From contig DDXT01000036.1 in the NCBI GenBank assembly GCA_002347755.1, forward strand, positions 1 to 53,157: DNA of 53,157 bases, written 5' to 3'. Source of the DNA: Bacillales bacterium UBA2253 (GTDB taxonomy: Bacteria > Bacillota_I > Bacilli_A > ML615J-28 > CAG-698). Made by a program: the position numbers and the translations under genes. Below are positions 7,515-44,385 of this stretch, in pieces (within the stretch, counting starts at the first letter, position 1; each line of letters opens with the position of its first letter). The notes under the pieces are model-generated. The model searched no databases. It saw only the letters and a program-made list of their open reading frames with translations, and was not told where the DNA came from.

Positions 7515-8811
7515 GGACTACCTCTTTCGCCGTTGATACCGGATATCCGGCCTTTTTTATAATTACTTTCACAAGATCGTTTTTTCGAGCCGTAAGGCTT
7601 GGAAATTCAATTTCCAAATAATTGGCCGAATGACCGAAAGCCAATCCCATTTGGTTTCTTTCTACGATGACTTCCAAAATCTGGCCTTCAAATTTTTGAC
7701 GATATTCCAAGGCCTTTTTTTGGTTTAAAGCCAACAATTCATTGACCCGGTAATGTTTGGTCATTTCATCAATTTGGTCCGGATAATTGAAAGCCGGGGT
7801 TCCGATCCGGCGGGAATAAGGAAAGATGTGCGTCTCGCCAAAATTCAGGGAATCGACGAACTGAAAGGTTTTAGAAAAATCTGCGGCGGTCTCACCGGAA
7901 AAACCAGTCATGATGTCGGTGCTGATGTTAACCCCGGGAAAGATGGCACGAATCTGGGCAATTTTATCGGAATAATATTCAAGATCGTATTTTCGATGCA
8001 TTCTTTTCAGTGTTTCATCGCATCCGCCTTGCAATGGAATATGAAAATGATCGCAGACATGAGCGGAATTGGCGCAGATGGCCTCCAATAATTTGGGGGT
8101 GACATCGGTGGCTTCAATCGAGGAAACGCGAATCCGTCCCAAATTTCGAACCTTTTGGGTCAATTCGGTAAGCAAATCGGCCAAGTCATGGTTTCCGAGG
8201 TCTTCCCCGTAGGCACCAGAATTGATTCCCGCCAAAACGATTTCCCGGATTCCCTGATCAGTAAGCAATTGAACTTCCGCGATCACATTTTCGGGTTTCC
8301 GGCTGCGAACTCGGCCCCGGGCATAGGGGATGGCGCAATAACTACAAAAGTTATTGCATCCGTCTTCGATCTTGACAAAGCCGCGGGATTTGTTCGCGAA
8401 CCGATCGATCTTCAATTCTTCATAAACTTTTTCTTGCTTGACGTCCTGGATCGCAAAATGGGGGGCTTTGTCTAAAAGCGCGGCGGAAACCAGTTCAAAT
8501 AAACGATGGCGTTCAGTCGTTCCGATCAAAACGTCCACTCCTCTGATTTTAGCGACCTCATCCAGATGAAGCTGCGCAAAACAACCCATGACCGCAACGA
8601 TCGCATCTGGGTTGCTTTTGACGGCCCGACGAATCATTTTCCGGCTTTTCACATCCGAAACCGCCGTGACGGTGCAAGTATTGATGATATATACATCGCT
8701 TTGCTCTCCAAACTCAACCAGTTCATATCCATGATTCATAAAATCATTGATGATGGCCATGGATTCGTATTCGTTGACTTTGCAGCCAAGCGAGCAATAA
8801 CTAACTTTCAT
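7507..8811 (-). CDS. mtaB: Radical-SAM methylthiotransferase, MtaB (YqeV)-like
   Basis: UPF0004 N-domain, CNNFCSYC radical-SAM motif, TRAM-like C-terminus. Gene order dnaJ-rsmE-mtaB as in Bacillus (yqeU-yqeV). Confidence 0.75.
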   Translation of the reverse strand: MKVSYCSLGCKVNEYESMAIINDFMNHGYELVEFGEQSDVYIINTCTVTAVSDVKSRKMIRRAVKSNPDAIVAVMGCFAQLHLDEVAKIRGVDVLIGTTERHRLFELVSAALLDKAPHFAIQDVKQEKVYEELKIDRFANKSRGFVKIEDGCNNFCSYCAIPYARGRVRSRKPENVIAEVQLLTDQGIREIVLAGINSGAYGEDLGNHDLADLLTELTQKVRNLGRIRVSSIEATDVTPKLLEAICANSAHVCDHFHIPLQGGCDETLKRMHRKYDLEYYSDKIAQIRAIFPGVNISTDIMTGFSGETAADFSKTFQFVDSLNFGETHIFPYSRRIGTPAFNYPDQIDEMTKHYRVNELLALNQKKALEYRQKFEGQILEVIVERNQMGLAFGHSANYLEIEFPSLTARKNDLVKVIIKKAGYPVSTAKEVVHV

Positions 8812-9550
8812 TTTTTAACTCCGCTTCATAACTAATGGCGCACATGGCATACAGAGGTGCGGTTTCACACCTGAGGATCCGGGGACCCAAACCAACCGCG
8901 TGAAAACCGCTTTGGTCCAGCCGTTCAGCTTCCTGAGGACTGATTCCCCCTTCAGGTCCGGTCAAAAACAAAATTGAACGTCCCGAAAAACGCTTTAAGA
9001 TCCCTTTCAAAGAAAAATCGTCCGTCTTTCCCCGTTCTTCATAGGCATAAAGACAGAGGTCAAAGTTTTTGCTCATTTCCAGAAAACTTTTGAAACTGGT
9101 TATTGGCAAAACCAGAAGCAGTTTATTCCGAAGCGATTGTTCGGAAGCTTCTTTGACGATCAAAGCCATCCGGTCAAGTTTCGCCCCCGGCGTAACCTTG
9201 GCCTTTACCATGCTTCGGGCCATCTCGACCGGAACAAAACCGGCCGCTCCGAGTTCGACGATCCGTCGCAGGACTTCTTCCTGTTTGGGGAATTTGGTCA
9301 GCCCCATGGCAATGGTGACTTCCCAAGGCAGTTCGGTATTGCGATCTAGCTTTTTCTCGATTTTCAAAATCACTTGATTAGTTGCCAGCTGGTCAATGAT
9401 GCAAGCATAAACGTTTCCGGTTTCATCCGCGGCTTCAACCGCCATTCCCGGCTGCATGCGCATGACATTTTTGATGTGATGGCAGTCACTTCCGAGAATG
9501 ACCACAATTCCGCTGCTAATTTGTTGGTTGGTCACAAAATATCTTTGCAT
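8801..9550 (-). CDS. rsmE: 16S rRNA (uracil1498-N3)-methyltransferase
   Basis: MQRYFV... start, trimmed from 9604. C-terminal SPOUT region (GPEGGISPQE...LGPRILRCETA). Confidence 0.85.
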   Translation of the reverse strand: MQRYFVTNQQISSGIVVILGSDCHHIKNVMRMQPGMAVEAADETGNVYACIIDQLATNQVILKIEKKLDRNTELPWEVTIAMGLTKFPKQEEVLRRIVELGAAGFVPVEMARSMVKAKVTPGAKLDRMALIVKEASEQSLRNKLLLVLPITSFKSFLEMSKNFDLCLYAYEERGKTDDFSLKGILKRFSGRSILFLTGPEGGISPQEAERLDQSGFHAVGLGPRILRCETAPLYAMCAISYEAELKNES

Positions 9551-9610
9551 ATCGTACCTTCGCAAATTACTATGGTTTATTATACCATTTTTCTGATCAA
9601 ACAAAAGAAA

Positions 9611-9630
9611 AATGCTAGATTTCTAGCATT
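9611..9630. repeat. Flanking copy 1 of the duplicated dnaJ terminator hairpin
   Basis: aatgctagatttctagcatt. It is the exact reverse complement of 9801-9820: the stems are identical and only the central loop bases are flipped. On the minus strand it is followed by the T-run tttcttttgt. Confidence 0.85.
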
Positions 9631-9800
9631 TCAGACTGATGACAAACCTCATTTTCAAAGATGGGGTTCGTTTATTGTTCCACAACCATCTTGAAAAAAC
9701 CAAAAAAACACTTTTTTAGACTCGAAAAAGATATCTTTTTGGTGCCATTGTCCCATTTTATGACAAGAAAAAACGAGCGTTGACTTTGTCAACGCTCTGA
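9631..9800. mobile_element. Miniature TIR-bounded element (MITE-like), copy 1
   Basis: 170 bp, ~94% identical by eye to 32021-32189. Imperfect terminal inverted repeats TTCAGACTGATGACAAAC / TTCAGAGCGTTGACAAAG (14/18). Three internal hairpins. Confidence 0.7.
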
Positions 9801-9820
9801 AATGCTAGAAATCTAGCATT
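9801..9820. repeat. Flanking copy 2 of the duplicated dnaJ terminator hairpin
   Basis: aatgctagaaatctagcatt. It abuts and overlaps the dnaJ stop codon. Confidence 0.85.
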
Positions 9821-10938
9821 TAACTTTTAAAAAATTTCTTAATCTTATCAAAAATCGAAGATGATTTTTCATCAGTTCGCGATAATTTCAAGAACAGGTC
9901 TTTTTGTTCCGCTGATAATTTCGACGGTGTGATCAAGTTGGTGATGACAAATTGATTTCCGGCCATTCCGGTCCGGGAATTGTAAATTCCTTTGTTGGCC
10001 AATTTGAATTTCGTTCCGGTTTGGGTTCCGGCCGGAATTTTTAGATTGACATTTCCGGTCAGAGTCGGAATTTCAATGTTGTCACCCAAAGCCGCTTGGC
10101 TGAAAGTGATCGGCATCTCCAGGATAATGTTCAAATCATCGCGGATGAATATCTCATGCGGTTTGACGGAAACATTGACGTACAGATCGCCGTTCATGCC
10201 GCCATTGGCTCCGGCTTCGCCGTAACCCGACAGTTTGAATCCTTGGTTGTCATCAATTCCCGAAGGAATCTTGACTTTGATCTTGGTGGGTTTGCGAACC
10301 CGGCCTTCGCCGCCGCAGACCGGACATTTATTCTTGATTACTTTGCCTTTTCCGCCGCAAGTCGGGCAGGTTTGTTGCGTTTGGATGCGGCCGAACGGGG
10401 TATTTTGCTCGATCACGATCCGCCCTTGGCCCCTACATTTTGGGCACACGCCAACATCATTCTTGGATTGGGCACCCAAACCGGCACAAGCCGAGCAAGT
10501 GTCATATTTCGTGATGCTGATCTCTTTCTCGCAGCCAAAGGCCGCTTCTTCAAAAGAAATGGTAAGCGTGGTCCGCAGGTCCGAGCCGCGGCTGGTAGAA
10601 CTGGACGCGGATTCGCGTCTTCCTCCTCCGAAAATGGAAGAGAGAATGTCCTCAAAACCACCGAAGCCGCCAAAACCACCGCCGCCGAAATTAAAGCCTT
10701 CAAAACCCTGCCCCATATTCGGGGACTCATGACCAAATTGATTATATTGCTCCCGTTTAGCCGGGTCGCTCAAGACTTCGTAGGCTTCCTGAACCTCTTT
10801 GAATTTTTCGGTGGCTTTGGGTTCAGTGCTGACATCAGGATGGTATTTCTTGGCGAGGGCCCGGTAAGCCTTCTTTATTTCATCATCGGTGGCAGTCTTG
10901 GAAATTCCCAGAACTTCATAATAATCTCGTTTGGCCAT
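9820..10938 (-). CDS. dnaJ: Molecular chaperone DnaJ
   Basis: J-domain with HPD, G/F-rich linker, four CxxCxGxG zinc-finger repeats. Confidence 0.97.
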
Positions 10939-26778: not shown

Positions 26779-26921
26779 TAATAATTATAAGGTAAAAGCC
26801 CTAATTATGCAAATAATAAGTTCATCAGAAAACTAACAAAGACCATTTGAATTTTTTCTGCCTTTAGAAAAACATACTGCCAAAAAAAAAGAGCTTTTTT
26901 CGCTCCTTATTAACTTTGATT

Positions 26922-26939
26922 ATGTAACTTAGTTGGTAG
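26922..26939 (+). repeat. Island repeat copy G (aTGTAACTTAGTTGGtaG)
   Basis: 15/18 match to CTGTAACTTAGTTGGGGG, plus-strand orientation. Confidence 0.8.
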
Positions 26940-26950
26940 TGTAAGTATAA

Positions 26951-26970
26951 CTGTAACTTTGTTGGTGGTC
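26951..26970 (+). repeat. Island repeat copy F (CTGTAACTTtGTTGGtGGTC)
   Basis: 18/20 match, plus-strand orientation. Forms a hairpin/palindrome with copy E. Confidence 0.8.
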
Positions 26971-26971
26971 T

Positions 26972-26989
26972 CCCCCATAAAAGTTACAG
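26972..26989 (-). repeat. Island repeat copy E (CTGTAACTTttaTGGGGG on minus strand)
   Basis: 15/18 match, opposite orientation to F, 1 nt away. Confidence 0.7.
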
Positions 26990-27185: not shown

Positions 27186-27213
27186 TTTTGACCCCCAACT
27201 AAGTTACAGAGCC
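27186..27213 (-). repeat. Island repeat copy D, longest unit (GGCTCTGTAACTTAGTTGGGGGTCAAAA on minus strand)
   Basis: It shares the GGCT flank with copy A and the TCAAAA flank with copy C. Confidence 0.9.
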
Positions 27214-27847: not shown

Positions 27848-28297
27848 CTAAGTCGTAATATGCAAGAAACACTTGATGCAATAAGCAATAGGGTCCGGAA
27901 ACTGAATCTCTATATTATGTTCTTCAAGCTTACTATACCCACACTGTCTGCATGTTGCAATATGATATTGAAAATCTCTTGGGAAATAATTACCAGCATA
28001 AGCATGTGTACAAAGAATACTAATCCCAGAAGAATTATATGAAGAGAAAGTAATGTTATCACTTCCTGTTGTTAGCCAATTACCGACTTGCCCTAAACGC
28101 AACGTAAAACTAGAAGAACTTGTATTGTTAGAATGCCTCAAAAAGAATACATTGCTATTTCCGGCATCTGAAGCAACAACAGTTCCAATAGAATTTACAA
28201 GTTCTAAATTATATTTTGTAAATACTGGGTTAATTGCGATGCCGCCATTGGATGGATTAGACCCACCCCAAACAGAATTAAATCTTTTGACCCCCAA
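27848..28297 (-). pseudogene. 5'-truncated ORF (Ser/Asn/Gly-rich region plus C-terminal H/C-rich CxxC...CxxC segment)
   Basis: The 149-codon frame has no ATG and no SD. It opens at a TTG inside repeat copy C, immediately after the repeat's in-frame TAG. Confidence 0.5.
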
Positions 28298-28308
28298 CTA
28301 AGTTACAG
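28285..28308 (-). repeat. Island repeat copy C (CTGTAACTTAGTTGGGGGTCAAAA)
   Basis: Perfect core; TCAAAA flank shared with copy D. Confidence 0.9.
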
Positions 28309-28316
28309 GCGAAATA

Positions 28317-28334
28317 CCACCAACTAAGTTACAG
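28317..28334 (-). repeat. Island repeat copy B (CTGTAACTTAGTTGGtGG)
   Basis: 17/18 match. 26 bp start-to-start from C. Confidence 0.9.
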
Positions 28335-28349
28335 GTTGTATTTCATATA

Positions 28350-28371
28350 CCCCCAACTAAGTTACAGAGCC
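28350..28371 (-). repeat. Island repeat copy A (GGCTCTGTAACTTAGTTGGGGG)
   Basis: Perfect core; GGCT flank shared with copy D. 33 bp start-to-start from B and 27 nt after the regulator stop. Confidence 0.9.
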
Positions 28372-28397: not shown

Positions 28398-29669
28398 TCA
28401 TTGAGAAAGAATGATTCTACAATTTTGTTTGACGGTGGTCTTCAAGCCGGTTTGGTAGTAAAAGGCCTCTTTGTACTTAGAAGTGTGGCATAAATACTCT
28501 AGATAATAACGATCGTAAACTTCCCCATACAGATGATGGCTGTATAAAGCGTTATAAGGCAAGGCTTCATACTTCAGGTATTCAATCAGCGCATATTTCT
28601 TTTCGCTGGTAAATTTGATCAGCATGAACTTGATGAATATCTTGTGAATGGTTTCATTTTCCTCGTAAATTTGGTCTTTAATCAATTCTACCGCTTGGCT
28701 CCGGTAATTATCGTCATCAATCGTATCGACAGTGTAGAGCAATAAAGCGGCGAAACGGGCATCCGAGTATAAATGATTGTCAACGATTTCATCGAAAACA
28801 TCAAACCATTTGTTCCCCCTCAACATTATTTGGAGTTTCCAAGCCCGAGCTTCACTGGAAAGCCGATCATCCATTTGATTAAGGTTCAGATTTTCAATTT
28901 CTTTTTCAACTTCTTCAAAATACTCTTTGGATTCGATGTCAAGCAGCATCAGCCGGATGATCAATTGTCGTTGGCTGGGATAGCCGATGTTAAAATTGGA
29001 CATCAACTTCCGGTAATATTTAAAGACCATGGCCGAACATTTAAGGTTATAGCCAGTCACAAAATGCTGTTCGTAAATCAACCAGCTTATTTCTTTCATC
29101 TCGAAAGTAAGTTTATCCAAATATTTTAGATATTTCTCGGCTTCACCGAACTGATAAGTGTTCACATAATATTGAACAACCAGGAACATGAAAACTCCCA
29201 CGTCTTCCAAAAGCAAAGTATCCTTGATGTTATCGATGGTTTTGACGATTTCCTTAAACTCCAAATATTTTTCGTTAACCAAGTAGTAAAAGCCTTTGAT
29301 CAAACAGTTCTGAACATTAAAAATGGAATCATCGATCATTAAATAATATCTTTCAATTTCCTCGAATTTATCATAAAGATAAGCTTTGACCACGTTTTTG
29401 ACGCCTTCTTCAATGATGTTCATTCCCACTTTCGTATAATCGAGGTTAACGCGTTCAAAAATGGCTTTAATGTAATCCTCGTCAACATTGATGGCGTTCT
29501 TTTCAAACTTGCAAAGATAACTGATCGAACAAATTCCATGGGCCATCTCCGAAAGCGTCATCTTGCGGCGGGTTCGTTCATTCCGAATAATCTGCGAATA
29601 CAAATAAGTCTTTCCGGGATTTTTCCTATTTCCCAGCAACAAATCGAATTTTTCAATTTTGGTAATCAT
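28398..29669 (-). CDS. XRE-type HTH plus helical-repeat (TPR-like) transcriptional regulator, RNPP/Rgg-like architecture
   Basis: N-terminal HTH (RNERTRRKMTLSEMAHGICSISYLCKFEKNAINVDEDYIKAIFERVNL) followed by ~340 aa of helical, Tyr/Leu/Glu-rich repeats. RBS AAGGAGAGGGG. Confidence 0.7.
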   Translation of the reverse strand: MITKIEKFDLLLGNRKNPGKTYLYSQIIRNERTRRKMTLSEMAHGICSISYLCKFEKNAINVDEDYIKAIFERVNLDYTKVGMNIIEEGVKNVVKAYLYDKFEEIERYYLMIDDSIFNVQNCLIKGFYYLVNEKYLEFKEIVKTIDNIKDTLLLEDVGVFMFLVVQYYVNTYQFGEAEKYLKYLDKLTFEMKEISWLIYEQHFVTGYNLKCSAMVFKYYRKLMSNFNIGYPSQRQLIIRLMLLDIESKEYFEEVEKEIENLNLNQMDDRLSSEARAWKLQIMLRGNKWFDVFDEIVDNHLYSDARFAALLLYTVDTIDDDNYRSQAVELIKDQIYEENETIHKIFIKFMLIKFTSEKKYALIEYLKYEALPYNALYSHHLYGEVYDRYYLEYLCHTSKYKEAFYYQTGLKTTVKQNCRIILSQ

Positions 29670-31258: not shown

Positions 31259-31951
31259 TTATGTCATCTTTTGTTGCTCCAAAAGACTGAAATAACGGTT
31301 TTTTCCGATGATGATGTGATCAACCACCAAAATATCCACCATTTTGGCGGCTTGGATCAATTTCTTCGTCACCATGATATCTTCAGCGCTCGCTTCGGGG
31401 TTGCCGCTCGGATGATTGTGAGCCACGATGATGGCCGTCGCCGAAAGTTTGAGAGCCCATTTCAAAATGTCGCGGGGATTGAAGATGGTCTGGTTGACCG
31501 TGCCGATGGTAACGGTTTTTTTGGCAATTACTTCACTTTTGTTGTTCAGGTAAATGCAAACTAAAGATTCTTGCGATAAATGTTGCATGGAATCTTTCAG
31601 ATACAGGTAGGATTGGTACGGGCTGGTGATTACCGTTTGCGATGACAGCGGAATGTTGATTCGCTTCCCTAGTTCAATGGCGGCCAGAATTTCGATGGCT
31701 TTCGCTTCCCCAATCCCTTTTATTTGCATCAGTTCGGTAATCGTTGCTTCATTTAATTTGTCTATGGATTCGAAATGAAAAAGCAAGGTTTTCGCCACAT
31801 CGAGCGCGGAAGTGTTGGCACAGCCCGTTCGCAAGACAATGGCCAGTAACTCATGAGTGGCCAGGGATTGAACTCCGGCTTTTCGCAGTCTTTCCCGCGG
31901 CCGTTCGTCAATGGGCATCTCTCGAACCAAAAAACTCATAAAGGACCTCAT
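31259..31951 (-). CDS. radC: RadC-family JAB-domain protein
   Basis: ERPRERL, HhH region and HNHPSG JAMM motif. The start could be 31951 or 31939. Confidence 0.88.
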   Translation of the reverse strand: MRSFMSFLVREMPIDERPRERLRKAGVQSLATHELLAIVLRTGCANTSALDVAKTLLFHFESIDKLNEATITELMQIKGIGEAKAIEILAAIELGKRINIPLSSQTVITSPYQSYLYLKDSMQHLSQESLVCIYLNNKSEVIAKKTVTIGTVNQTIFNPRDILKWALKLSATAIIVAHNHPSGNPEASAEDIMVTKKLIQAAKMVDILVVDHIIIGKNRYFSLLEQQKMT

Positions 31952-31995
31952 TTCCGCTTATATATTAGAACAAAATCAGTTTTTTTCGTCAAAAA

Positions 31996-32020
31996 AGAGA
32001 TGAAAATCAATTTCATCTCT
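31996..32020. repeat. Flanking copy 1 of the duplicated folC terminator hairpin
   Basis: agagatgaaaatcaatttcatctct (10-bp stem, 5-nt loop), identical and direct to 32190-32214. On the minus strand a T-run follows it. Confidence 0.9.
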
Positions 32021-32189
32021 TCAGACTGATGACAAACCCCATTTCCAAAGATGGGGTTCGTTTATTTTTCCACAACTATCTTGAAATAACAAAAAAACAC
32101 TTTTTTAGACAAGAAAAAGATATCTTTTTGGTGCCTTTGTCCCATTTTATTACAAGAAAAAATGAGCGTTGACTTTGTCAACGCTCTGA
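32021..32189. mobile_element. Miniature TIR-bounded element (MITE-like), copy 2
   Basis: 169 bp, ~94% identical to 9631-9800, with the same orientation relative to the flanking minus-strand genes. Confidence 0.7.
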
Positions 32190-32214
32190 AGAGATGAAAA
32201 TCAATTTCATCTCT
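32190..32214. repeat. Flanking copy 2 of the duplicated folC terminator hairpin
   Basis: Identical 25-mer, 4 nt from the folC stop. Confidence 0.9.
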
Positions 32215-32218
32215 TGTT

Positions 32219-33487
32219 TTATTTAAATTTCGATAATAGCTCGCTGACGAAATACAGGCTGCCGCAGAATACCGTGATTTGATCCTTTTTGGCTTTGACT
32301 TCCGCGAGGATTTTGTCCACATCTTTTTCCATTCGTTTGTTAGGATGTTTGGACAACTCAAAAATCGTTTCCGGAATGTCGCTGCGTTTGTAATTGTAAC
32401 GCGTAAAAATGATCTCGTCGGCGACGGTGTCAAGCATGGGGATCATTTTATCTTTGGCTTTATCCGCCGATACTGCAAACACGATGCACAGGCGTTTTTG
32501 ACCTTTGATGACTCGCAAAAATTCCGTCAACCGCGTAACGGCATCAATGTTGTGAGCACCGTCGATGATGATGAGCGGATCCCGGGAAACAATTTGCAAG
32601 CGACCCGGCCAATAAGTCTCCCAAATTCCCTGATGAATCAATTTGTTGGAAAGCGGTAACCCATATCGTTCGCGAAGGACTTTGGCTACGACCGCCGCCA
32701 AACTGGCGTTTTCGGTCTGAACAATTCCCAGGAGTTTGGTGCGAAGACCCTTAAATTCCATATAATCGAAAGCCGTATCGTCCAGATTTACATCAATGTT
32801 TTTAATGTCCTTTTTGTCAACCAGAATCAATTCGCTCCCATGGGCTTGGCAGCTTTCCTTAAATTGCTTCAAAAGCTGATCATTTTTGATGGTTACTAGC
32901 GGAATGCCGTCTTTGACGATTCCCAGTTTATTAAAGGCGATCTCCTCCAAGGTATCACCCAACACATTCATATGGTCAAAAGTGACATTGGTGATGACGG
33001 AAACCAGCGGGGTAACAATGTTGGTGGCATCAAGCCGCCCTCCCAAACCGACTTCCAAAGTCACAAAATCCAGTTCTTTGATCCGGGAAAAAAACACGTA
33101 GGCAATCAAAGTCACGAACTCGAAGAAAGTGGGGAGTTCGATTCCCTGAGCTTCGATCTCCGGATATTTTGATAGCAGATAATTTCCTATTTCCAATAGG
33201 TCGTCATCCGAAATGAATTGGTCATTATAAGAAATTCTTTCGTTGAAACTGACCACAAACGGCGAAATGTATGATCCGACGTTATAACCGGCTTTTCGCA
33301 GAATGCTCTTCACAAACGAAACCACGGATCCTTTTCCGTTGGTCCCGCCAACATGAATGTACTTAATGCCCTCGTGCGGATTCCCGTAAACGGCGCTAAG
33401 TTTTCGCATTTTTTCCATCGATACTTTGGGTGAGTGGCGCTTTTGGCTCTCGATCCAAGCAATCAATTCTGGTGCATTGGTAAACAT
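32219..33487 (-). CDS. folC: Bifunctional folylpolyglutamate synthase/dihydrofolate synthase
   Basis: HVGGTNGKGS P-loop, Mur-ligase middle and C-terminal domains (IIDGAHN). Confidence 0.9.
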   Translation of the reverse strand: MFTNAPELIAWIESQKRHSPKVSMEKMRKLSAVYGNPHEGIKYIHVGGTNGKGSVVSFVKSILRKAGYNVGSYISPFVVSFNERISYNDQFISDDDLLEIGNYLLSKYPEIEAQGIELPTFFEFVTLIAYVFFSRIKELDFVTLEVGLGGRLDATNIVTPLVSVITNVTFDHMNVLGDTLEEIAFNKLGIVKDGIPLVTIKNDQLLKQFKESCQAHGSELILVDKKDIKNIDVNLDDTAFDYMEFKGLRTKLLGIVQTENASLAAVVAKVLRERYGLPLSNKLIHQGIWETYWPGRLQIVSRDPLIIIDGAHNIDAVTRLTEFLRVIKGQKRLCIVFAVSADKAKDKMIPMLDTVADEIIFTRYNYKRSDIPETIFELSKHPNKRMEKDVDKILAEVKAKKDQITVFCGSLYFVSELLSKFK

Positions 33488-36169: not shown

Positions 36170-36396
36170 CAAATAAAAAGTCCTTAAGTTTTTGCTTAAG
36201 GACGATTGTGCGCCGTGGTACCACCTTATTTCAACATTGCTGTTGCGCTCATTTCCTTTAACGCAAATGCCACGGACGAAACTACTTGGTTCATTTCATC
36301 AACTCCAAGGCGACTTTCACAACTTCCCAATCGGACTTCACACCAACTGTCCTTCTCTGGTTTGGGGAGGGCTGCTACTCTTCCTCTTCATCGTTT
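36170..36396 (-). promoter_or_regulatory. T-box riboswitch leader of valS
   Basis: On the minus strand: GATGAAGAGGAAGAGTA (GA/S-turn region), AGAGA bulge, candidate specifier GAAA-GTC-G (GUC = Val, 36314-36312), T-box GGTGGTACCACGGCG (36225-36211), terminator gtccttaag...cttaaggac + T-run (36203-36171). Confidence 0.88.
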
Positions 36397-36402
36397 TTGT
36401 TA

Positions 36403-44030: not shown

Positions 44031-44049
44031 GATTTAAAGGACGTATTCT

Positions 44050-44385
44050 GTAAGCCTTGTTCTGTTCTTCTTTCGAAGCGGTAATCATTTATCTCTGTTT
44101 TAAAGCAGTCTTGACTTCGTTCGATTCCGTCATCAAGATTCCCCTACCAAAATTTGGGTTTCTAGCTTATGGGGTTTACCCGTTCCACTCCTCTCGTTTC
44201 CAAGAGGCATCGTCACTGTGGCACTTTATGAAAACTAGCCATTTGAAAGGTGTTGTTTTCGCCATCGCATTCCAAGCGTCCTAACTTATTAATTAATTAG
44301 GCATAAACATTACAGCATCACAGCATGTGCTAGCAAGGACTTTCCTAACGGACTTCAAGAGTCCGCTCGATTACCCGAATACGGC
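44050..44385 (-). ncRNA. rnpB: RNase P RNA, bacterial type B
   Basis: On the minus strand: TTCGGGTAATCG, AGGAAAGTCC, AAAGTGCCACAGTGACG, GTGGAACGGGTAAACCCC, GAAACCCAAATTTTGGTAGGGGAA, AGATAAATGATTACCGC, CAAGGCTTACAGAA. These blocks are collinear with B. subtilis rnpB. P1 pairs CGTATTC with GAATACG. The ends are approximate (+/-5 nt). Confidence 0.93.

Follow-up and report, generated by a model that had tools for sequence, protein, structure and literature searches.

[quoted passage not shown] The element most probably owes its mobility to an IS1182-family DDE transposase acting in trans. Its insertion targets are intrinsic (rho-independent) terminator hairpins, as predicted by a terminator scan, at the 3' ends of genes.

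Two copies of the element and their insertion sites

The two window copies (Table 1) align with 157 matches, 10 substitutions and one 1-nt indel, exactly the count that an earlier sequence-only reading of this DNA had given (about 94% identity). With this divergence of 6.5% both copies may be old and immobile. The same reading had delimited a core of 170 bp at 9631–9800 bounded by 18-bp terminal inverted repeats with 14/18 matches. The element is real and the 14/18 match stands, but its limits had to be shifted. Full-length relatives and other copies start at CAG after varied bases, so the outer TT/AA belongs to the duplicated target and the proper span of copy A is 168 nt. From the limits CAG...CTG it follows that the terminal inverted repeats are 16 bp long (consensus CAGNCTGWTGACAAAS) and that the duplication at copy A, which had been recognised with a length of 20 bp, measures 22 bp.

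Matches to the terminal 18-mers in the window were confined to the two elements, with 0.10 and 0.04 matches expected by chance. By analogy with the full-length insertion sequences, copy A has its IRL-type end at 9799 and its IRR-type end at 9632, and its sense strand is therefore the minus strand of the window. Only two ORFs, of 40 and 45 codons, are present in the window copies, and both run across the central part of the element, where subfamilies show no conservation. The window copies are small (167–168 nt) and lack a transposase gene, and no such gene was found elsewhere in the window or in any MITE-adjacent locus. No Rfam family covered the element at the gathering threshold, and comparison of its DNA with viral contigs and with plasmid and phage collections gave only chance-level short matches.

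Table 1. Position of the element copies, duplicated hairpins, terminator-like sites and neighbouring genes in the window
Feature	Position	Strand	Details and evidence
rsmE-like 16S rRNA methyltransferase gene, 249-aa form, downstream of copy A	8801–9550	minus	ORF; 249-aa orthologues with PF04452
Copy A, dnaJ-distal duplicated hairpin	9610–9631		Plus strand AAATGCTAGATTTCTAGCATTT; sequence, terminator scan, orthologous single hairpin at empty sites
MITE copy A	9632–9799	minus	168 nt, no credible ORF
Copy A, IRR-type 16-bp terminal inverted repeat CAGACTGATGACAAAC	9632–9647	plus	15/16 to the ends of the L104 insertion sequence
Copy A, subterminal hairpin with T-rich tail	9645–9678	plus	Terminator-like, facing inward from the left; terminator scan
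Copy A, IRL fold-back hairpin GAGCGTTGAC-AAA-GTCAACGCTC followed by GTTTTTTCTT	9765–9797	minus	Terminator-like, facing inward from the dnaJ side; terminator scan
Copy A, IRL-type 16-bp terminal inverted repeat CAGAGCGTTGACAAAG	9784–9799	minus (as read)	
Copy A, dnaJ-proximal duplicated hairpin	9800–9821		Minus strand AAATGCTAGATTTCTAGCATTT; sequence, loop as in the L117 empty site
dnaJ, 372 aa, own terminator struck by copy A	9820–10938	minus	ORF; Pfam DnaJ domains
radC, downstream of copy B	31259–31951	minus	ORF; RadC homologues
Copy B, left 27-bp duplicated hairpin AAGAGATGAAAATCAATTTCATCTCTT	31995–32021		Direct repeat, 100% identical; on the minus strand followed by TTTTTGACG
MITE copy B	32022–32188	minus	167 nt; same orientation as copy A
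Copy B, inward-facing terminator-like hairpins	32035–32058; 32186–32164	plus; minus	Terminator scan
Copy B, right 27-bp duplicated hairpin	32189–32215		3 nt past the folC-like stop codon
folC-like folylpolyglutamate synthase gene, 422 aa, terminator struck by copy B	32219–33487	minus	ORF; Mur_ligase domains at orthologous loci

The sequence-only reading had proposed that insertion doubled one terminator hairpin next to dnaJ. The flanks it described, aatgctagatttctagcatt (9611–9630) and aatgctagaaatctagcatt (9801–9820), are both there and are exact reverse complements, as are the full 22-mers. Beyond the distal flank it had noted the T-run of a normal terminator; on the minus strand this flank is indeed followed by TTTCTTTTGTTT, and the original T-run lies at 9599–9609. 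The distal hairpin has thus remained complete as an intrinsic terminator, called at 9632–9609 in the terminator scan. The proximal hairpin has lost its T-run to the insertion. It does not merely touch the dnaJ stop codon (9820–9822), as had been seen, but covers its last two bases.

Empty dnaJ-rsmE sites were found in four relatives, in which dnaJ is followed by a single hairpin AAATGCTAG(n3-4)CTAGCATTT, a T-run and rsmE. The relatives compared have DnaJ proteins 77–83% identical to that of the window, with one further contig of about 91% nucleotide identity. The intergenic gap is 74–87 nt in relatives against 269 nt in the window, and BLAST against the closest relative leaves a gap of 168 nt with a doubly aligned overlap of 22 nt. 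The loops of the dnaJ terminator differ among relatives (TCTC, CTAC, TTTC, ATTT), which means that this loop is mutable. At the folC-radC site three contigs of relatives are empty and carry one hairpin; one of them comes from a MAG with the element at another place. Since close relatives are empty at both loci, with one hairpin and a T-run, both window sites are true insertions, and the proposed doubling of a single hairpin holds for both. It should be mentioned that the perfect 27-bp direct repeat around copy B was absent from the earlier reading.

Distribution and end structure of the element

In total, 46 distinct complete copies were found by scanning public genomes and metagenomes, in uncultured Bacilli/Acholeplasmatales-like MAGs. 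They occupy 46 distinct contexts in about 12 MAG species and many metagenomes, which contradicts a syntenic spacer; the element is both multicopy and polymorphic in presence, as the two empty window sites in relatives demonstrate. Many copies stand at contig ends, and short-read contigs end inside the element, as they do at repeats. A scan of the window and of the first 54 loci for further elements flanked by duplicated palindromes returned MITE copies only.

Clean duplications, for which the flanking repeats had to reach 12 nt and differ at no more than 2 positions, were present at 39 of the 46 copies. In each case a copy-specific hairpin of 16–27 bp (median 20) was doubled, with a mean hairpin energy of -9 kcal/mol. 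The other seven copies have differing hairpins on either side or truncated flanks. The duplicated sequences lack a consensus and their length always equals that of the palindrome. Among the 39 informative copies, direct orientation fits better than inverted in 37; copy A is the single exception, and locus L033 also looks inverted but is degenerate. Thus, of the outcomes that would have spoken against a mobile element (tandem hairpins already present in relatives, a syntenic spacer, undoubled flanks at other copies), none occurred.

The targets lie at the ends of genes. The end of an ORF (frame of at least 100 aa) is located within 130 nt for 37 of 40 copies and on both sides in 18, these 18 standing between convergent genes, and orientation is unbiased (8 vs 11). 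Of the 39 clean copies, 30 are T-rich in the adjoining 8 nt on the right (5 T or more) and 28 are A-rich in the adjoining 8 nt on the left (5 A or more). The flanking hairpins of both window copies are called by the terminator scan. The same terminator was found occupied in opposite orientations in two pairs of loci (L006/L013 and L020/L076); all copies of the subfamily concerned are identical, which leaves a comparison of in-situ inversion with independent insertion without power.

Terminator-like sites facing inward were revealed at both ends of both window copies, against a chance expectation of 0.1–0.3. The stem on the IRR side has undergone compensatory double changes at 6 of 11 pairs across subfamilies. 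In copy A the IRL hairpin begins 2 nt beyond the proximal target hairpin and is the first terminator-like site of the element met by transcripts leaving dnaJ. Transcription of dnaJ, whose own hairpin is now without a T-run, would stop there. The end hairpins of the element replace the terminator context of dnaJ and folC, and so may alter how 3' ends form and how much transcription continues into rsmE and radC. Two CCCAC boxes on one strand are conserved, in contrast to the centre of the element. No sigma-70 promoter was found in the window copies at the threshold of the scan. By eye, -10-like hexamers were seen in other MITE subfamilies.

Relation to the IS1182 family and alternative readings

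A longer element with similar ends and a transposase, which the sequence-only reading had proposed to look for, does exist. At locus L104 a 477-aa ORF scores 351 bits on the NCBIfam model NF033551 "IS1182 family transposase" (cut-off 270) and also carries Pfam DDE_Tnp_1_6 and DUF772. This insertion sequence is bounded by perfect CAGACTGTTGACAAAC repeats, to which the MITE ends in the window match at 15/16 (IRR) and 13/16 positions (IRL). Full-length IS1182-family elements with MITE-like ends are 1.65 kb long and likewise duplicate whole hairpins. The long-read MAG JBMNLY01 holds at least three copies of 1647 bp, encoding a 469-aa transposase, with duplicated hairpins of 16, 26 and 17 bp, together with eight MITE copies of 190 nt, seven of them identical, so that in this genome MITEs and an autonomous partner occur together. 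Annotated IS1182-family elements on Listeria, Peribacillus and Bacillus plasmids have similar ends and hairpin duplications of 19–24 bp (19, 21, 24). Thus, the duplications of the insertion sequences (16, 17, 19, 21, 24 and 26 bp) and the 16–27-bp hairpins at the MITEs represent a shared behaviour. The earlier remark that hairpin duplications of 20–25 bp are unusual is fair for insertion sequences generally, but in this IS1182-family clade they are the norm. L104 and L109–L114 were left out of the duplication counts, their two flanks carrying different hairpins. The partners of some flanks were found on other contigs (the left flank of L114 equals the right flank of L109; the left flank of L113 is the reverse complement of the right flank of L110), which indicates that these short-read contigs are mosaics across repeated insertion sequences, or recombinants.

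None of the sampled full-length copies has the exact ends of the MITE, whose IRL variant CAGAGCGTTGACAAAGTCAACGCTC was seen on MITEs only. Beyond the 16-bp repeats, the MITE and the sampled insertion sequences have only their architecture in common: the terminal inverted repeat folds back at IRL and is followed by a T-run, with a different sequence in the full-length element, and a terminator lies near IRR. As the ends are identical at only 13–15 of 16 positions and similarity ceases just inside the repeats, the MITE is not a recent deletion derivative of the sampled elements. The absence of a shared interior lowers the case for a deletion derivative of these particular insertion sequences, not that for mobilisation by the IS1182 family.

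Our first lead was that the MITE belongs to the IS30 family and is a relative of Mycoplasma fermentans IS1630. The host lineage of the MITE is Mollicutes-like, and the insertion phenotype of IS1630, as described in papers that cite its primary report, is alike, with variable palindromic duplications derived from terminators. However, the MITE ends match elements with an IS1182-family transposase and not IS30, tblastn with the IS30 transposase gave no match in the window or in 55 related loci, and the repeats of IS1630 are given in those papers as 27 bp, against 16 bp in the MITE. On the negative tblastn search and the IS1182-family partner transposase this parentage was dropped, and we consider it extremely improbable. 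A likeness of the MITE ends to the E. coli IS30 repeat was uninformative, the shared GTCAAC/GTTGAC hexamer being palindromic and placed at another distance from the tip, and a resemblance to IS6-family ends (GGTTCTGTTGCAAAGT) was superseded by the IS1182 match. An immobile, conserved intergenic module between tandem terminators, such as a small RNA gene or a regulatory spacer, would agree with the conserved covarying hairpins, the CCCAC boxes and the lack of a nearby transposase. It is practically untenable given the orthologous sites in close relatives, which are empty and have one hairpin, and given 46 unrelated contexts with their own duplicated hairpins, no Rfam match and short-read contigs that break inside the element.

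Two further readings concern details of a mobile element. The reverse-complement flanks of copy A had suggested a hairpin-specific mechanism, for instance one in which each flank comes from a different strand of a cruciform; the exact 22-mers and the degenerate flanks of L033 agree with such a footprint. As a general rule it fails against direct duplication at 37 of 39 informative MITE copies and at all clean full-length copies with asymmetric loops (e.g., L108, L132), and the loop at the empty site L117 is that of the proximal hairpin, which leaves the distal hairpin of copy A as the one that was altered; the loop of this terminator also varies among relatives. We therefore hold a mechanistic footprint to be very unlikely; later recombination or two point changes, the other options named at the outset, remain for the flip at copy A. 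Besides being a selfish MITE, the element could also be kept by its hosts as a portable two-way terminator or insulator, perhaps also as a small promoter or RNA module between genes, a use that would add to the IS1182 reading and not replace it. An inward hairpin with a T-run at both ends maintained by compensatory change across species, the IRL terminator 2 nt after a target hairpin deprived of its T-run, the copies between convergent genes and the conserved CCCAC boxes speak for it. Against it, the autonomous insertion sequence has similar end hairpins, explained by shielding from read-in and by termination of the transposase gene, presence/absence polymorphism in close relatives argues against a needed function, and a consensus promoter was not found in the window copies. 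Such host use appears rather unlikely.

Putative mechanism and comparison with known systems

Returning to the IS1182-type MITE, duplications of 16–27 bp that always equal the palindrome and have no sequence consensus point to target selection by structure, in which an IS1182-family transposase would recognise the shape of the terminator hairpin. The simplest geometry would be strand transfer to both strands at the foot of the stem; extrusion of a cruciform, or of hairpins on unwound DNA, would bring these two positions together, although in linear DNA the full length of the palindrome separates them. Gap repair would then leave two directly repeated hairpins. The flipped loop on the distal side of copy A would be a later, copy-specific change, as it is the only exception among directly duplicated copies. 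Transposition, this cruciform or hairpin geometry and terminator activity of the element ends are all deduced from sequence.

As a tentative extension, which we regard as possible but not probable, the DDE transposase might bind cruciforms or unwound hairpins and join the ends at the stem base, so that a stagger fixed in three dimensions gives duplications of palindrome length. The fold-backs at the ends of the element might then mimic the target, the same domain reading both. Flanks that are both direct and inverted repeats could let the element invert in situ and let loops flip through template switching, and such events would explain the occupancy of terminators in opposite orientations and the dnaJ loop flip.

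The mechanism of transposition in the IS1182 family was listed as unknown in a review table of 2018 (PMC6199540). The 46 MITE copies and about 10 insertions of the full-length element, with each duplication consisting of one variable-length palindrome of unrelated sequence, speak for a DDE transposase that is guided to its target by structure. For annotation, it should be mentioned that such short repeats break MAG assemblies, and that doubled terminator hairpins beside core genes can pass for tandem terminators or attenuators.

The Correia element of Neisseria and RUP of Streptococcus pneumoniae are likewise short, non-coding, multicopy intergenic MITEs bounded by terminal inverted repeats; they are presumed to be moved in trans by the transposase of a related insertion sequence and can carry promoter or terminator signals. 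They produce 2-bp (TA) duplications at sites defined by sequence, whereas at the MITE described here a whole structure of variable length is duplicated. IS1630 of the IS30 family (Calcutt et al., 1999, as cited in PMC3317919 and PMC7648426) has, according to these citing papers, duplicated junctions of 16–26 bp formed by inverted repeats from terminators. It differs from the MITE in its unrelated transposase family, its 27-bp terminal repeats and its autonomy at 1.38 kb, and the likeness is a convergence in target choice, not membership.

Within the IS1182 family, some members have been reported to target palindromes (PMC4923244). IS1272 and TnSha1 of staphylococci insert at terminator hairpins in either orientation and irrespective of primary sequence, and a single hairpin can be struck repeatedly (Furi et al., 2016; PMC4923244). 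The hairpin targeting is like that of the MITE, but IS1272 is reported to insert bluntly, with partial deletion of the target hairpin and no duplication (Furi et al., PMC4923244), whereas 39 of the 46 MITE copies have an intact, doubled hairpin; members of the family thus do not all behave alike. TnSha1, unlike the MITE, also has a passenger gene and a transposase.

The closest likeness is to the CAGRCTGTNGACAAA-ended clade of IS1182 elements in Firmicutes, which includes the 1647-bp element of JBMNLY01 and annotated copies on Listeria monocytogenes pLIS32, on Peribacillus pB and on a Bacillus subtilis plasmid. These have nearly the same 16-bp repeats, target terminator-like palindromes beside A- and T-runs with direct duplication of the whole palindrome (16–26 bp), and carry a fold-back hairpin followed by a T-run at the IRL end. 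The window element differs from them in its length of 168 nt and its lack of a transposase, with only the terminal repeats (13–15/16) and the end architecture in common. It is a further member of a known, little-studied kind of element that duplicates the hairpin into which it inserts.

Window copies and their empty sites

Two copies of a transposase-less MITE are present in the window, copy A after dnaJ and copy B after a folC-like gene, both directly 3' of the stop codon of a minus-strand gene. Reading and alignment of both regions (157 matches, 10 substitutions and one 1-nt indel) agreed almost to the base with the sequence-only reading, and the terminal 18-mers have no other occurrence in the window (chance expectation 0.10 and 0.04). 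The flanks of copy A, aatgctagatttctagcatt and aatgctagaaatctagcatt, are exact reverse complements of each other, and copy B lies between two identical 27-nt direct repeats (31995-32021 and 32189-32215), which had escaped that reading. A terminator scan called three sites per copy against 0.1-0.3 expected, namely the flanking target hairpin and one inward-pointing hairpin with a T-run at each element end. An Rfam search of the element returned no family.

Features of the window and flanking duplications of full-length insertion sequences (IS)
Feature	Position	Strand	Description
MITE copy A core	9632-9799	minus (sense)	168 nt
MITE copy B core	32022-32188	minus (sense)	167 nt; same strand as copy A
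dnaJ	9820-10938	minus	upstream of copy A; rsmE-like gene downstream
folC-like gene	32219-33487	minus	upstream of copy B; radC downstream
XRE-HTH/TPR regulator-like ORF	28398-29669	minus	
T-box leader	36195-36400	minus	115 bits
RNase P RNA class B	44046-44382	minus	260 bits
JBMNLY01 IS, L108			duplication AGGCATTTCCATGCCT, twice
JBMNLY01 IS, L118			duplication AAAGAATGATTAATCAATCATTCTTT, twice
JBMNLY01 IS, L120			duplication AAGAGCATT(A/G)AGCTCTT, twice
Listeria monocytogenes pLIS32 IS			ends CAGACTGTAGACAAAG; duplication AGACAGCCGCAATGGCTGTCT, twice
Peribacillus pB IS			ends CAGACTGTAGACAAAC; duplication AACAGACATAGGTATATGTCTGTT, twice
Bacillus subtilis plasmid IS			ends partly located; duplication ACAGCAATTAAATTGCTGT, twice

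Comparison with relatives revealed that both copies are insertions. The contigs of three DnaJ homologues (83, 82 and 77% identity) were examined; in each, dnaJ is followed by a single hairpin (AAATGCTAG-TCTC/CTAC/TTTC-...CTAGCATTT), TTTTCTTTT and rsmE. The dnaJ-rsmE gap is 74-87 nt in these three relatives versus 269 nt in the window, i.e., about 79 + 168 + 22. In a closer relative (L117, ~91% nucleotide identity to the window) the site holds the single hairpin AAATGCTAGATTTCTAGCATTT, and its BLAST alignment with the window leaves a 168-nt gap and aligns the 22-nt hairpin twice. Similarly, the folC-radC interval of three close-relative contigs (RadC 94-95% identical) holds one hairpin, AAGAGATGAAAT(n)CATTTTCATCTCTT, with a T-run; one of these contigs is part of the MAG CAYQUB01, in which other loci carry the element. 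Thus, the proposal that insertion had duplicated a terminator hairpin holds at both loci. A Logan contig with an identical DnaJ ends ~50 nt into the element, in the way that assemblies break at repeats.

It should be mentioned that the MAG bins CAYPLR01 and CAYQUB01 (L006, L011, L019, etc.) are titled 'uncultured Bacteroidales bacterium'. They have near-identical loci, and a RadC of 95% identity, in common with the Bacilli-type window organism, so this label looks wrong. The RNase P RNA class B and T-box leader of the window are consistent with a Bacillota/Mollicutes-like host. The window also contains an 18-24-nt motif, TTTTGACCCCCAACTAAGTTACAG, in four direct (three within 85 nt) and two inverted copies at 26915-26975, 27186-27209 and 28285-28367. 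They lie in a low-GC island (36% versus about 45%) adjoining the regulator-like ORF and a small membrane ORF, and may represent operator sites or a small cassette.

Distribution of the MITE and structure of its target duplications

Species-representative genomes and metagenome contigs were scanned with one exact 20-mer of the right end, TTGACTTTGTCAACGCTCTG, which matched 54 and 41 stretches, respectively, many of them at contig ends. The hosts were MAGs labelled Bacilli, Bacillota or Acholeplasmatales, together with some mislabelled bins. After removal of duplicates, 46 distinct complete copies of 153-238 nt were obtained, whose invariant right end is a product of the search pattern and not evidence of constraint. 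Flanking repeats (at least 12 nt, at most two mismatches) were found in 39 of the 46 copies; they are 16-27 bp long (median 20), and all are copy-specific near-perfect palindromes with a mean fold energy of -9 kcal/mol. At least five T in the 8 nt to the right were present in 30 of these 39 copies, at least five A in the 8 nt to the left in 28, and both in 22. An ORF end (frame of at least 100 aa) lies within 130 nt of 37 of the 40 copies with enough flank, and 18 of the 40 have ORF ends on both sides, i.e., convergent genes. There was no orientation preference (8 versus 11).

Several unusual copies were also revealed. The MITE at L013 2629-2843 has an internal 28-nt tandem duplication (CCCCACAAATGCCTATATATGAAATAAAT twice) and is 215 nt long, versus 187 nt for the same-site copy in another MAG. 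Solo IRL ends (IRL and IRR being the two 16-bp terminal inverted repeats) of ~50 nt occur in L012 (6150-6198), L079 and L105. A single hairpin adjoins each of them, an IRR end is absent over 2.5 kb, and they are truncated element remnants. Copies of a second subfamily, shorter at 153-168 nt and bounded by TAGACTGAYGACAAAC and ...ACAGTCTACATATCGTTGACTTTGTCAACGCTCTG, were found in L067, L069, L089 and L107 (right ends), L094, L096 and L106; this subfamily duplicates hairpins too, e.g., TATACAGCTTGGCTGTATA in L106.

Through loops and imperfect stems, 38 of the 39 duplications are informative for orientation, the remaining one being a perfect palindrome. The direct reading fits better in 37, the inverted one in window copy A alone; a reverse-complement relation of the flanks, which had suggested a hairpin-specific mechanism, is therefore not supported as a general feature. 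The data show insertion at the terminator hairpin, with exactly this palindrome duplicated in direct orientation. The empty site of L117 has the loop of the dnaJ-proximal hairpin of copy A, so only the distal copy changed. This terminator has a different loop in each of the relatives compared, and the loop hence evolves fast. We conclude from these comparisons that the flip is probably a post-insertion change. It may have arisen by two adjacent substitutions, by template-switch loop inversion or by antiparallel gene conversion between the palindromic flanks, which lie 190 bp apart; the sequences fit all three equally.

At some terminators, different assemblies carry the same element in opposite orientations, namely the MITE in the pairs L006/L013 and L020/L076 and a full-length IS in L113 versus L110/L112. 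The hairpin loops keep their genomic orientation. Such hairpins may be hot spots that are hit more than once, as has been reported for TnSha1 (PMC4923244), or the element may have inverted in place between the palindromic flanks; the two are indistinguishable, as all copies of that subfamily are identical.

The related transposase and element ends

IS1630 of the IS30 family duplicates 16-26-bp inverted repeats derived from terminators, according to two papers that cite its original description (PMC3317919, PMC7648426). This parentage, our first lead, was dropped: an IS30 transposase query matched neither the window nor any of the first 54 loci, and the partner ORF belongs to the IS1182 family. 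In L104, a contig from the metagenome scan, a 477-aa ORF lies between the left end CAGACTGTTGACAAAC and the perfect inverse of that end; it matches NCBIfam NF033551 'IS1182 family transposase' (351 bits, cut-off 270), with the Pfam domains DDE_Tnp_1_6, DUF772 and DDE_Tnp_1. The right side of this full-length IS (312-1990) abuts a solo MITE IRL hairpin, AGAGCGTTGACTTTGTCAACGCTCT, and its left side an unrelated hairpin. The IS may have inserted into the end hairpin of a MITE, which would then itself be a target; alternatively, this 2-kb contig may be a mosaic.

Homologues of this ORF, P0181 and P0245 (a 90%-identity cluster member), are located on 727-kb and 224-kb contigs of the long-read MAG JBMNLY01, which has eight MITE copies of 190 nt, seven of them identical. 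Three IS copies of this MAG are each 1647 bp long, with ends CAGGCTGTTGACAAAG and CAGACTGTTGACAAAA. A second IS (P0138) has a hairpin at each junction, but the matching partners are on different short-read contigs, which are therefore mosaics. We also located the ends of annotated IS1182-family genes on complete plasmids of cultured Firmicutes. Taken together, the flanks of the JBMNLY01 and plasmid IS indicate that whole-hairpin duplication with CAGRCTGTNGACAAA ends is a habit of one IS1182-family clade. The longer transposase-bearing element with similar ends that the sequence-only reading had advised looking for thus exists. Duplications listed in ISfinder for the IS1182 family are 0-60 bp.

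The left repeat of the IS folds on itself (e.g., GCTGTTGAC-AAA-GTCAGCAGC); together with the T-run behind it, it forms a predicted inward terminator ahead of the transposase promoter. A second terminator lies 3' of the transposase gene, near the right repeat. This layout recurs at the MITE end at 9775-9799, where the stem differs but is compensated (GAGCGTTGAC-AAA-GTCAACGCTC and T-run); this end is therefore IRL-type, and the window minus strand is the sense strand. The other end (9632-9678) consists of the repeat followed by a hairpin with a T-rich tail; among 14 subfamily representatives, compensatory double changes affect 6 of 11 pairs of this hairpin. The element centre varies between subfamilies, except for two same-strand CCCAC boxes. 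Past the 16-bp repeats the MITE has no identity with the sampled IS copies, and its IRL variant was seen on MITEs only; it is thus a relative sharing recognition ends rather than a fresh deletion product of these IS.

Proposed mechanism and comparison with known elements

It can be hypothesized that the 16-bp ends of the MITE are recognised by a DDE transposase acting in trans, which picks its target by structure, since the length of the duplication follows that of the palindrome (16-27 bp) without shared sequence. The attacked phosphates, one per strand at the stem base, would be neighbours only with the palindrome extruded, and gap repair would then give a direct repeat. At dnaJ, TCAGAGCG now stands behind the proximal hairpin in place of a T-run, so dnaJ transcripts should end at the IRL hairpin of the element, 2 nt further; the distal hairpin retains the T-run, ahead of the rsmE promoter region.

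The finding holds up, as does its original interpretation, and specialists would consider it tidy rather than surprising. Its main value is a clean data set on IS1182-family transposition, the mechanism of which is given as unknown in a 2018 review table (PMC6199540). The MITE is a non-autonomous addition, from an uncultured Bacilli/Acholeplasmatales-like lineage, to the known hairpin-targeting elements of this family. The literature agrees with it in part: some members are said to target palindromes, and IS1272/TnSha1 inserts into terminator hairpins in both orientations and without sequence specificity (PMC4923244). However, IS1272/TnSha1 is reported to delete part of the hairpin without duplication (PMC4923244), whereas 39 of the 46 MITE copies and the six tabulated IS are flanked by a duplicated one.
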